Part shown: piece after piece, positions 1,998-50,104 of the stretch | Position numbering within the stretch: the stretch's first letter is position 1 | How the letters are laid out: the number at the start of each line of letters is the position of its first letter | Source of the DNA: Escherichia coli | GTDB taxonomy: Bacteria; Pseudomonadota; Gammaproteobacteria; Enterobacterales; Enterobacteriaceae | Strand: one strand, 5' to 3' | Length of the DNA: 64,000 nucleotides | Assembly (NCBI RefSeq): GCF_003790525.1 | Contig: NZ_CP033635.1 | Translations under genes and position numbers: made by a program | The notes under the pieces: generated by a model | Databases searched by the model: none | Seen by the model: only the letters and a program-made list of their open reading frames with translations | What the model was told of the DNA's origin: nothing

Positions 1998-2224
1998 TGA
2001 ATAAATCCTTTAGTTATTTTATTTGCCTTTTATCCCCATTTCGGGGAGTGAAAACATCCTAAAGGAGAAGTTCAGTTAGCCGATAAATATCATTTGTTAC
2101 GCCTTAAGTAAAACCTTAATCAAATAATTCCTCTGAAATGATAATAAGTCTGGTGAATGTATCGAAGATAATACATACAAAATAAAAATTATACTTTTAA
2201 TTTGCTATACGTTATTCTTCGCGG

Positions 2225-2333
2225 GTTATATGCCTTTATTGTCACAGATTTTATTTTCTGTTGGGCCATTGCATTGCCACTGATTTTCCAACATATAAAA
2301 AGACAAGCCCGAACAGTCGTCCGGGCTTTTTTT
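2225..2333 (+). ncRNA. micC: MicC small regulatory RNA (represses ompC)
   Basis: Sequence gttatatgcctttattgtcacagattttattttctg...gcccgaacagtcgtccgggctttttttt matches MicC as I remember it, including the terminator hairpin and T-run; lies in the ompN–ydbK intergenic region. Confidence 0.88.
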
Positions 2334-2362
2334 TAGAATTGGATAATCCTTATCCAGAGCAT

Positions 2363-6956: not shown

Positions 6957-7946
6957 TTAAACCAGTTCGTTCGGGCAGGTTTCGCCTTTTTCCAGATTGC
7001 TTAAGTTTTGCAGCGTAGTCTGAGAAATACTGGTCAGTGCTTCTGCTGTCAGGAATGCCTGGTGCCCGGTAAACAGCACGTTGTGGCAGGCAGACAGACG
7101 ACGGAATACGTCATCCTGGATCACGTCGTTGGATTTGTCTTCAAAGAACAGATCGCGTTCGTTCTCATACACGTCCATACCCAACGAACCAATTTTCTGA
7201 TTTTTCAGCGCTTCAATTGCTGCCTGAGAATTAATCAATGCACCGCGACTGGTATTGACGATCATCACGCCATTTTTCATCTGATCGAAGGCGGCTTCGT
7301 TCAACAGATGATAGTTTTCCGGTGTCAGCGGGCAGTGCAGAGAGATAACGTCTGATTCAGAGAACAGGGTTGGCAGATCGACATACTCCACACCGAGTTC
7401 CAGCGCCGCCGCACTTGGATACGGATCGAACGCCAGCAGACGCATACCAAAACCTTTCAGAATGCGCAGCATCGCCACACCGATTTTACCAGTACCGATA
7501 ACGCCTGCCGTTTTGCCATACATAGTAAAGCCGGTCAGACCTTCCAGAGAGAAGTTGGCGTCACGGGTACGCTGATACGCGCGGTGAATACGGCGGTTCA
7601 GCGTCATCATCATACCGATGGCATGTTCAGCAACGGCTTCTGGATCATAGGCTGGAACACGGACTACTTTCAGCCCCAGTTCTTTTGCCGCGTCAAGGTC
7701 GACGTTATTGAAACCGGCACAGCGCAGGGCGATATATTTAACGCCGTGCTTTTTCAGCTCTTCCAGCACCGGGCGGCTGCCGTCATCGTTTACGAAAATA
7801 CATACCGCTTCGCAGCCATTGGCAGTTTTAGCGGTTTTTTCCGTCAGCAGAAAGTCAAAAAATTCCAGCTCAAAGCCAAAGGACTCGTTCACCTGTTGCA
7901 GGTACTTCTTGTCGTACTGTTTTGTGCTATAAACGGCGAGTTTCAT
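6957..7946 (-). CDS. ldhA: fermentative D-lactate dehydrogenase (NAD-dependent)
   Basis: 329-aa ORF starting MKLAVYSTKQYDKKYLQQVNE; 2-hydroxyacid dehydrogenase family with NAD-binding GxGxxG (GTGKIG). Confidence 0.93.
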   Translation of the reverse strand: MKLAVYSTKQYDKKYLQQVNESFGFELEFFDFLLTEKTAKTANGCEAVCIFVNDDGSRPVLEELKKHGVKYIALRCAGFNNVDLDAAKELGLKVVRVPAYDPEAVAEHAIGMMMTLNRRIHRAYQRTRDANFSLEGLTGFTMYGKTAGVIGTGKIGVAMLRILKGFGMRLLAFDPYPSAAALELGVEYVDLPTLFSESDVISLHCPLTPENYHLLNEAAFDQMKNGVMIVNTSRGALINSQAAIEALKNQKIGSLGMDVYENERDLFFEDKSNDVIQDDVFRRLSACHNVLFTGHQAFLTAEALTSISQTTLQNLSNLEKGETCPNELV

Positions 7947-22841: not shown

Positions 22842-25905
<3,064 letters not shown>

Positions 25906-35146: not shown

Positions 35147-35211
35147 AAAGAAAACGCCTGTACTAAAACCGACCCGTGGTACAGGCGAAGAATACGGGTC
35201 TACATCGGAAG
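35147..35211 (-). ncRNA. rydC: RydC small RNA
   Basis: Reverse complement reads cttccgatgtagacccgtattcttcgcctgtaccacgggtcggttttagtacaggcgttttctt, matching RydC as I remember it; lies in the cybB–ydcA intergenic region. Confidence 0.75.
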
Positions 35212-35627: not shown

Positions 35628-35860
<233 letters not shown>

Positions 35861-36174
35861 TGGTCGGGGCCTTCGTCTTTCTGATTCCCGGTTAGCCTGA
35901 AAACAGAAAGTCTCAGGCACCCGTGAGCATCCTATGTGGTTTCCTTAAGGACGAAAATAATCACCTGACGAAATTGCGTGCTGTTTTCCAGAATTTTTCG
36001 TCATTCGGTTTAGCCAGTTTAATCATTCGTTACTCTCTTCATTCCAATGGCATTATTCTTCTCTGCCATAATTGTTGTAAAAATGTGACGCAAAGAGGTT
36101 TTTGGTCGTAAGAAATTACCGTCAAGTGCCGATGACTTTCTATCAGGAGTAAACCTGGAAGAGAGACAACGGTA

Positions 36175-46832: not shown

Positions 46833-46837
46833 TTCCA

Positions 46838-46868
46838 GACGCGCCATCGTTAGATGGCGCTTTTTATT
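46838..46868 (+). terminator. intrinsic terminator of ydcL
   Basis: gcgccatc gtta gatggcgc hairpin followed by TTTTT; the T-run overlaps the ydcO stop codon on the other strand. Confidence 0.8.
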
Positions 46869-47156
46869 ATCGGTTTCTGTCAGCGATTAAATTCAACACC
46901 ACGTAACAAACGCCTCCGGCAATTAATCCCCAAAACGCAGAACCAATCCCGACCAGCGTCAATCCACTTGCCGTTACCAGAAATGCCACCACCGCCGCGT
47001 CGCGCTCACGCTCATTATGCAGCGCCTGATACAAACTGCCGCCAATGGTACTCAACAGCGCCAGACCTGCCAGCATCTGGATCCAACTTACGGGCAGGGT
47101 AGTCATCATCCCGGTAATGGCACTACCAAACAGACCTGCGAGCAAATAGAAAATGC

Positions 47157-47168
47157 CTGCAACGGCAG
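47157..47168. repeat. left copy of 12-bp target-site duplication CTGCAACGGCAG
   Basis: Identical 12-mer directly abuts both IS4 ends. Confidence 0.85.
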
Positions 47169-48593
47169 TAATGCCGATCAGTTAAGGATCAGTTGACCGA
47201 TCCAGTGGCTGTGTAAGAATCCGGAAACGCTCACTTGTTTCCGGATTTTTTATGCACATTGGACAGGCTCTTGATCTGGTATCCCGTTACGATTCTCTGC
47301 GTAACCCACTGACTTCTCTGGGGGATTACCTCGACCCCGAACTCATCTCTCGTTGCCTTGCCGAATCAGGTACTGTAACGCTACGCAAGCGCCGTCTTCC
47401 CCTCGAAATGATGGTCTGGTGTATTGTTGGCATGGCGCTTGAGCGTAAAGAACCTCTTCACCAGATTGTGAATCGCCTGGACATCATGCTGCCGGGCAAT
47501 CGCCCCTTCGTTGCCCCCAGTGCCGTTATTCAGGCCCGCCAGCGCCTGGGAAGTGAGGCTGTCCGCCGCGTGTTCACGAAAACAGCGCAGCTCTGGCATA
47601 ACGCCACGCCGCATCCGCACTGGTGCGGCCTGACCCTGCTGGCCATCGATGGTGTGTTCTGGCGCACACCGGATACACCAGAGAACGATGCAGCCTTCCC
47701 CCGCCAGACACATGCCGGGAACCCGGCGCTCTACCCGCAGGTCAAAATGGTCTGCCAGATGGAACTGACCAGCCATCTGCTGACGGCTGCAGCCTTCGGC
47801 ACGATGAAGAACAGCGAAAATGAGCTTGCTGAGCAACTTATAGAACAAACCGGCGATAACACTCTGACGTTAATGGATAAAGGTTATTACTCACTGGGAC
47901 TGTTAAATGCCTGGAGCCTGGCGGGAGAACACCGCCACTGGATGATACCTCTCAGAAAGGGAGCGCAATATGAAGAGATCAGAAAACTGGGTAAAGGCGA
48001 TCATCTGGTGAAGCTGAAAACCAGCCCGCAGGCACGAAAAAAGTGGCCGGGACTGGGAAATGAAGTGACAGCCCGCCTGCTGACCGTGACGCGCAAAGGA
48101 AAAGTCTGCCATCTGCTGACGTCGATGACGGACGCCATGCGCTTCCCCGGAGGAGAAATGGCGGATCTGTACAGTCATCGCTGGGAAATCGAACTGGGAT
48201 ACAGGGAGATAAAACAGACGATGCAACTGAGCAGGCTGACGCTGAGAAGTAAAAAACCGGAGCTTGTGGAGCAAGAGCTGTGGGGTGTCTTACTGGCTTA
48301 TAATCTGGTGAGATATCAGATGATTAAAATGGCAGAACATCTGAAAGGTTACTGGCCGAATCAACTGAGTTTCTCAGAATCATGTGGAATGGTGATGAGA
48401 ATGCTGATGACATTGCAGGGCGCTTCACCGGGACGTATACCGGAGCTGATGCGCGATCTTGCAAGTATGGGACAACTTGTGAAATTACCGACAAGAAGGG
48501 AAAGGGCCTTCCCGAGAGTGGTAAAGGAGAGGCCCTGGAAATACCCCACAGCCCCGAAAAAGAGCCAGTCAGTTGCTTAACTGACTGGCATTA
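47169..48593 (+). mobile_element. insertion sequence IS4 (about 1425 bp)
   Basis: Imperfect 18-bp terminal inverted repeats (TAATGCCGATCAGTTAAG left; TAATGCCAGTCAGTTAAG at right, reverse-complemented), a single 442-aa transposase ORF, and flanking 12-bp direct repeats. Confidence 0.92.
47252..48580 (+). CDS. insG: IS4 transposase (DDE family)
   Basis: 442-aa ORF starting [35 protein letters not shown]; contains the IS4-family YREIK motif ([14 protein letters not shown]). Confidence 0.92.
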
Positions 48594-48605
48594 CTGCAAC
48601 GGCAG
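48594..48605. repeat. right copy of 12-bp target-site duplication CTGCAACGGCAG
   Basis: Identical to 47157..47168. Confidence 0.85.
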
Positions 48606-49567
48606 CGGCCAGCCAACGTTGATCTTTATCCGGATGCGCTTCCGGGCTTTGGCAAATAGCCGCGGTGATTGCCGCAATACCGACGGAATAAACGCCGAAA
48701 GGGGAAAAAACCAGTGCCAGCAATCCAGTAAATACAATTAATGGCGAAACAGGAGCCGAATATCCGGCTGCTTTCATTGCTGCGATACCCGGTGCGTTTT
48801 GCGATGCCATCGTCACCAGAAAAAGGGGGAGTGCAACGCTCAGGCTGTGAGCAAACGAAAAATCAGGGCTAATATAAGTGGGGAGAACGGGTTTAAAGAC
48901 AACATCAGTTGTGACAATGTCACCTTGCGCGATAACGATCACGACCCCAATAATCATCGCGGCAATTACCGCATAGCGCGGCGCAACGGCCCTGGTTGCC
49001 AGCCATACCAGCAACATACTGCCACACAACGTAAATTGACCATCCAGGCTCGCAAACGCCTGTAAACCAAAGCGTAATAAAATCCCGGCAAGCATTGCCG
49101 CCGCAAGCGAGTGCGGAATAATGCGCATCAGATGAGCAAAGAGTCCCGTTATGCCGCAGAGGACTATTAACGCGTTGGTGACAATAAAAACGCCGATGGT
49201 TTCGTTAAGTGTTAGTCCCTGCAATCCGGTGACCAACAAAGCCGCGCCAGGCGTTGACCATGCGGTGAGAACAGGTACGCGATACCATAATGTCAGAGCC
49301 AGCGTACTGACGCCCATTGCCAGCCCCAGCGCCGTCATCCAGCCAGAGATTTGTGCAGTGGTGGCTCCGGCGACAATCGCTGCTTGCCAGATTATTGCCG
49401 CTGAACTGGCGTAGCCAATTAATACCGCCAGAAACCCCGCCAGTAGCGTGGGTGGAGGAATAGAAAACAGACGCATAGTCACCTCGTGCGTTATAGCGTA
49501 CAGGCACCGTAGCATTTGTCCGTTATAACGCACAAGTGATAAACTTCCGTTTTGCCGGAGGAGTCGC

Positions 49568-50104
49568 ATGGAAAATCTCGCTCGCTTTTTATCCACCACA
49601 CTTAAACAACTACGCCAGCAGCGCGGCTGGAGTCTTTCGCGACTGGCCGAAGCGACGGGCGTTTCTAAAGCAATGTTAGGGCAGATTGAGCGTAATGAAT
49701 CCAGCCCGACGGTCGCGACATTATGGAAAATTGCCACCGGGTTGAACGTACCATTTTCAACATTTATTTCTCCGCCGCAGTCCGCTACACCTTCAGTTTA
49801 TGATCCACAACAGCAGGCGATGGTGATCACTTCGCTGTTTCCTTATGATCCACAACTCTGCTTTGAACACTTCTCGATTCAGATGGCATCTGGTGCAATA
49901 AGCGAATCGACGCCCCATGAGAAGGGGGTAATCGAACATGTCGTCGTCATTGATGGACAACTTGATCTGTGCGTTGATGGTGAATGGCAGAGCCTTAATT
50001 GTGGGGAAGGCGTTCGATTTGCTGCAGACGTCACGCATATCTATCGTAATGGTGGGGAGCAAACCGTACATTTTCATTCCCTCATCCATTACCCGCGCAG
50101 TTAA
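49568..50104 (+). CDS. ydcN: XRE-family HTH plus cupin-domain transcriptional regulator
   Basis: 178-aa ORF; N-terminal HTH (RQQRGWSLSRLAEATGVSKAMLGQIERNESSPT); divergent from ydcO. Confidence 0.85.
   Translation: MENLARFLSTTLKQLRQQRGWSLSRLAEATGVSKAMLGQIERNESSPTVATLWKIATGLNVPFSTFISPPQSATPSVYDPQQQAMVITSLFPYDPQLCFEHFSIQMASGAISESTPHEKGVIEHVVVIDGQLDLCVDGEWQSLNCGEGVRFAADVTHIYRNGGEQTVHFHSLIHYPRS

Follow-up and report, generated by a model that had tools for sequence, protein, structure and literature searches.

IS4 interrupts ydcO, a BenE-family transporter gene, in the SMS-3-5 / ST354 group of Escherichia coli

IS4, the type element of the IS4 family, is represented in Escherichia coli K-12 MG1655 by a 1426-bp copy (insG, NC_000913.3 4502090-4503515) that is flanked by a 12-bp duplication of its own, CAGAACCAAGAT. 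The family is characterized by a transposase with the spacing D(60-110)D(100-150)E and the signature Y(2)R(3)E(6)K (PMC2266710), and its IS4 subgroup by (i) a size of 1400-1650 bp; (ii) the end signature -AATR--------WTW; and (iii) a target duplication of 10-13 bp (PMC2266710, Table 1). The locus described here, in which an IS4 copy lies within ydcO, is already known: IS4 and its target specificity have long been described, and in the RefSeq annotation of E. coli SMS-3-5 (NC_010498.1; ECSMS35_RS08790 / RS08795 / RS08800) two ydcO pseudogene pieces are found around an 'IS4-like element IS4 family transposase'. SMS-3-5 belongs to ST354 (PMC9174282). The window (the whole 64-kb stretch of DNA that was analysed) was found to be the reverse complement of SMS-3-5 positions 1730632-1794631 except at three SNPs and a 1-bp indel, none of which lies near IS4, and the two sequences are identical across the whole ydcO::IS4 locus. 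The SNPs are located at 7232, 19393, and 29409, and one A fewer is present in an A-run near 19553; identity of the window with SMS-3-5 itself was rejected on the basis of these differences, which point to a very close relative.

The IS4 element and its transposase

The initial annotation had described a complete IS4 with imperfect 18-bp terminal inverted repeats and a 442-residue DDE transposase, and this description was borne out in each of its parts. The element extends over 47169..48593 on the plus strand (1425 bp) and was aligned to the MG1655 copy, which is labelled 'insertion sequence:IS4' and served as a stand-in for the ISfinder record. The match to this reference, on which the identification had been made to depend, covers the full length at 99.5% nucleotide identity (1418 identical positions, 6 substitutions, and 1 gap in the window copy). 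By ISfinder practice, elements that diverge by less than about 5% in nucleotide or 2% in amino acid sequence bear the same IS name, and the window element lies inside these limits. The left terminal inverted repeat, TAATGCCGATCAGTTAAG (47169..47186, plus strand), carries the end signature of the IS4 subgroup; the right repeat, TAATGCCAGTCAGTTAAG (48576..48593, minus strand), differs from it by 2 mismatches, such that 16 of 18 positions match. Both repeats are the same as those of the K-12 copy. When the window was searched with the IS4 end pattern, two matches were obtained, both at the ends of the element, compared with 0.02 expected by chance.

A single long, unframeshifted ORF is present inside the element (47252..48580, plus strand) and corresponds to the intact 442-residue transposase, found in the ORF list and annotated in RefSeq as WP_000547185.1. 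The protein matched the NCBIfam model NF033592 ('IS4 family transposase') at 304.5 bits, where the cut-off is 115, and was found to include the Pfam domains Nterm_IS4 (residues 18-109) and DDE_Tnp_1 (residues 126-352). The YREK motif, Y(2)R(3)E(6)K, starts at residue 307, and the putative catalytic residues, as assigned by motif, are D133, D209, and E314, with spacers of 75 and 104 residues that fall inside the published ranges. Compared with the transposase of K-12 IS4, 440 of 442 residues are identical, and the two changes (G304A and R326L) arise from two of the six nucleotide substitutions. With the size, end signature, and duplication length of the IS4 subgroup, the element is IS4 (IS4 family, IS4 subgroup). 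The intact ORF and both intact ends are compatible with transposition activity of this copy.

The window copy is 1 bp shorter than that of K-12 (1425 versus 1426 bp) due to one T fewer in a T-run (about 47245) located just 5' of the transposase ATG. With this run (47241-47246) one T short, the product called in RefSeq is 442 residues long, compared with 448 residues from an upstream start in the 1426-bp copies. The 1425-bp variant is known at other loci, including nimR of strain 675SK2 (L010). Copies that are 100% identical to the window element were found in SMS-3-5 and 14 other genomes, and at least one IS4 copy was detected in 2686 of 5426 complete E. coli genomes.

The interrupted gene and its target-site duplication

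The IS4 element separates two parts of a minus-strand gene, which are listed in RefSeq as pseudogenes: a 5' fragment 'missing C-terminus' (48594..49476; codons 1-294 counted from MRLFS, as defined by translation) and a 3' fragment 'missing N-terminus' (46867..47168; codons 295-390 and the stop codon, as defined by reconstruction). RefSeq places the start of ydcO at 49515, which is 13 codons upstream of MRLFS. Deletion of 47169-48605 in silico generated an uninterrupted ORF on the minus strand, with 390 codons when read from MRLFS and 403 when read from the RefSeq start, in agreement with the earlier proposal that the fragments would sum to a full-length gene once one copy of the duplicated 12-mer was removed. 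The continuity that had been predicted thus held, while the predicted length of about 391 codons proved to be that of the K-12 gene, with 390 codons found here. The uninterrupted ydcO of CE10 is equal in length to the reconstruction and aligns to it with no gaps. In K-12, ydcO has 391 codons with a different last codon, and the end of the gene abuts IS609, which is absent in the window; the A35 gene likewise has one extra terminal codon. When compared with TIGR00843 (BenE family), the reconstructed 390-residue YdcO scored 694.8 bits (cut-off 203.4), with profile positions 14-395 of 395 covered. The gene split by IS4 is ydcO, which encodes a BenE-family transporter, and its identification in the initial annotation was correct.

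As read from the window, the interrupted gene encodes 294 native residues followed by VMPVS and a stop codon inside IS4, for a product of 299 residues. The 96 C-terminal residues that are lost were found by a crude hydropathy scan to contain at least three hydrophobic segments. Without its C-terminal quarter, ydcO::IS4 is almost certainly a null allele; truncation after codon 294 of 390 supports the inactivation that had been proposed, and transport function would presumably be lost. A literature search on the function of E. coli YdcO yielded only its mention among the SELEX targets of SutR.

The 12-mer CTGCAACGGCAG was reported at both junctions in the initial annotation, and exact copies are indeed present on the left (47157..47168) and on the right (48594..48605), neither assigned to a strand. 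The copies are 1437 bp apart and are the only two occurrences in the 64 kb on either strand. Because the bases that flank them differ (C/A before and T/C after), the duplication is exactly 12 bp. The 62-bp empty-site context of the uninterrupted CE10, A35, and K-12 alleles contains exactly one copy of CTGCAACGGCAG, and the reconstructed junction is identical to the empty site of A35 and K-12, with one flanking base different in CE10. Since the flanks are contiguous and the uninterrupted alleles carry a single 12-mer in matching context, the event is a simple insertion of IS4 into ydcO, as first suggested, and not an IS-mediated rearrangement.

The region 3' of ydcO was also compared among strains. 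No IS609 is present between ydcL and ydcO in the window (46833-46866), whereas in K-12 MG1655 a 1748-bp IS609 (insQ) abuts the ydcO stop codon, and in strain A35 tnpA/insQ genes of the IS200/IS605 type are located at the ydcL-ydcO position. With IS609, tnpA-insQ, and IS4 all found around ydcO, this small region has been struck by different insertion sequences in different lineages.

Target-site preference and transcription signals

Thirteen other IS4 insertions (L002, L006-L011, and L014-L019) were compared with the ydcO site. These included (i) seven sites retrieved independently of their flanks, namely K-12, bcsG, upstream of cueR, ynbB/ynbC, a DUF4049 gene, nimR, and downstream of bamD; and (ii) six further sites from a search ranking that favoured query-like flanks and are biased in this respect. 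The insertions are found in lacY, bcsG, nimR, frvR, and a phage tail gene, among others, as well as at intergenic terminators near rraA/zapB, ygcG/eno, and bamD. Across the 13 sites the duplications are 11-14 bp in length, and a pseudo-palindrome was evident that consists of an A-run, (T)GC, CAGC...GCTG, GC(A), and a T-run. When a half-site matrix built from few sites (the seven unbiased ones) was used to scan the IS-free window, the left arm of the ydcO site, TAGAAAATGC|CTGCA, ranked 1st of 125,098 positions, and dropping the six biased sites left this rank unchanged. The right arm (CGGCCAGCC...) has no T-run and is ordinary at -2.4 bits. A target of this form is preferred by IS4 but is no condition for assigning an element to the subgroup. 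Scored as a full site, ydcO ranked 22nd of 62,563 positions with the unbiased seven-site matrix and 5th with the biased sites included. Most other IS4 sites have both arms, whereas ydcO and lacY are without a good right-hand T-run; the K-12 copy, which occupies a different locus, provides a further contrast to the ydcO target, which fits the consensus on one arm only. Thus, the position of the insertion in ydcO is probably explained by the preference of IS4 for such targets, with only one good arm available. At the DUF1482/exonuclease site (AAAAATGC cagcaatggcag GGATTTG), only 2 of the 12 duplicated bases depart from the ydcO core.

An 'AAA-N20-TTT' target rule for IS4 was also considered; the K-12 site fits this rule, but ydcO has the A-run and no T-run at the required spacing, and the empirical half-site matrix was used instead. 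The consensus resembles a bidirectional intrinsic terminator, with an A-run, a GC-rich stem-loop (which becomes the duplication), and a T-run, and the intergenic insertions at rraA/zapB, ygcG/eno, and downstream of bamD sit on terminator-like hairpins. Two free targets of this kind were noted in the window. The ynbB/ynbC junction (22847-22877; AAATTCACGC atccctgggga ACATTTTTTT) is unoccupied here and occupied by IS4 in FDAARGOS_1260 (L008); it ranks among the top predicted sites in the window and was itself used in the matrix. The best-scoring free target (about 60731-60763; CAAAAAATGA cgcatatttgcgc GCGTTTTATT) is a terminator-like palindrome between an A-run and a T-run.

Signals that could influence transcription were identified at both ends of the element. 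On the plus strand, a consensus scan revealed a promoter-like site 5' of the transposase gene (47193..47220; TTGACC, a 16-nt spacer, and TG-AAGAAT), which may serve as the transposase promoter. It is followed directly before the transposase ATG by a strong plus-strand hairpin with a T6 run (47215..47250; inverted repeat I5; -23.9 kcal/mol, z = -5.2), which probably prevents outside transcription from reading in and masks the start region. At the other end, a terminator scan identified a minus-strand hairpin (48564..48589; -19.6 kcal/mol, z = -3.4) with an 11-bp stem that overlaps the right inverted repeat and is followed by TCTTTTT. This hairpin is terminator-like and, judged from its sequence, would stop transcription that starts at the ydcO promoter once it has proceeded a few tens of bases into IS4. 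Outside the element, the divergent neighbouring regulator gene sutR (ydcN) is located at 49568..50104 on the plus strand according to RefSeq, and the spacer between ydcO and ydcN was identified by SELEX as a target of SutR (PMC5934670). The initial annotation had pointed the outward-reading end of IS4 at ydcN. The transposase gene is indeed oriented toward sutR, but 975 bp separate the end of the element from the sutR start codon, the 91-bp region upstream of sutR is retained, and a promoter scan for outward promoters toward sutR returned three promoter-like sites versus 2.1 expected, which is chance level.

Distribution of the insertion and alternative explanations

Of 5426 complete E. coli genomes, 24 share the identical ydcO::IS4 structure and 5384 have a contiguous empty site; among the 5411 genomes with a match, about 3 besides the 24 carriers were not contiguous at the site. 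When genomes were ranked by identity to the 9.2-kb left flank, the carriers made up precisely the top 24 (100.0%), and the next genomes, at 99.8%, are non-carriers. According to their host and source fields, the carriers were derived from humans, chickens, dogs, a pangolin, and surface or river water. Because the insertion is common to exactly these 24 closest genomes, it predates their common ancestor, and it is a clade marker of the SMS-3-5 / ST354 group that is not private to the isolate. The earlier description of the insertion as recent was therefore supported in part: the duplication, the inverted repeats, and the transposase are undecayed, but the event is older than the common ancestor of the 24 genomes.

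We consider it highly probable that a single IS4 copy transposed into ydcO in an ancestor of the SMS-3-5 / ST354-like clone by ordinary DDE transposition. In this event, the transposase would have made cuts staggered by 12 bp and joined the ends of the IS to the target, after which gap repair would have duplicated CTGCAACGGCAG; the cut-and-paste chemistry is suggested by analogy with IS10, IS50, and IS231. The site was probably chosen for its left arm and core (GAAAATGC-CTGCAACGGCAG), which resemble the preferred pseudo-palindrome of IS4 (A-run, GC, CAGC...GCTG, GC, and T-run). The insertion would have cut ydcO after codon 294 of 390, to leave 294 native residues with 5 IS-encoded residues, and would since have been inherited vertically by the clone.

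The remnants of ydcO carry four substitutions (R115H, V187I, A313T, and A314T) that are absent from CE10, A35, and K-12, and all four are G-to-A changes on the coding strand and non-synonymous. By comparison, 7 of the 21 other variable ydcO sites among the window, CE10, A35, and K-12 are non-synonymous (hand-calculated hypergeometric p of about 0.03 for 4 of 4 versus 7 of 21). This pattern fits relaxed constraint after inactivation, although four substitutions are too few for proof and may predate the insertion.

The same data bear on other explanations of the locus. Every one of the 24 clone members sampled, from several hosts and sources, has the insertion, and such fixation would fit an adaptive event, either since loss of YdcO was beneficial or since IS4 altered sutR through transposase read-out or an early end of divergent ydcO transcription; yet clonal inheritance alone accounts for this fixation, and a single event against 5384 of 5426 intact sites does not suggest that loss of ydcO has been selected repeatedly. 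As for sutR, the transposase reads toward the gene, the right-end hairpin on the plus strand has no T-run such that read-out is not obviously blocked, and SutR targets the spacer between ydcO and sutR (PMC5934670). Against an effect by this route are the distance of 975 bp from the IS end to sutR, the lack of outward promoters above chance, and the preserved sutR upstream region. On balance, we regard an adaptive insertion as very unlikely. It would be similarly surprising if IS4, by ydcO truncation at the IS-end hairpin or by transposase read-through, altered the SutR sulfur-utilisation regulon and thereby conferred a heritable phenotype on the ST354-like clone.

That the finished ydcO::IS4 allele was acquired from a different E. 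coli lineage through homologous recombination appears less plausible still. The reconstructed ydcO does differ from every uninterrupted allele in the collection, with a best match to the reconstructed junction of 99.5% over 400 bp, and the donor could therefore be unsampled; however, among the 5426 genomes none outside the clone carries the insertion, and the carriers share a 9.2-kb left flank with a uniform identity of about 100%, with the next lineages following smoothly at 99.8%. An origin of the 12-bp repeat or of the interruption by chance or through an assembly artefact is already refuted and has a negligible probability: nothing was found in its favour, the window contains the 12-mer at the two junctions and nowhere else, the same structure is present in 24 separately listed complete assemblies, and the single-copy empty site of uninterrupted alleles matches base for base in A35 and K-12 and with one flanking base off in CE10. 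Vertical inheritance of one ordinary IS4 transposition is thus the preferred reading. As a consequence, ydcO is a pseudogene in the carrier lineage, the significance of which is otherwise small and a matter of bookkeeping. Because the insertion is present in 24 of 24 near-identical genomes and in none outside them, it could be used to recognize the SMS-3-5 / ST354-like clone by simple PCR or in silico, and the site is a clean example of an IS4 target that matches one arm only of the preferred palindrome.

Elsewhere in the window, other features were noted. An Rfam scan gave no match in or adjoining the IS4 element and identified the small RNAs MicC (2222-2342, plus strand), RydC (35148-35211, minus strand), and sok (35771-35922, minus strand), the last adjoining hokB; all are expected for the region. 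A 5955-nt autotransporter gene at about 11760-17720, annotated as intact in SMS-3-5, has as its K-12 counterpart ydbA, a pseudogene broken by insertion sequences. This gene contains an internal repeat in which a 60-mer recurs about 231 bp away, near position 12351.
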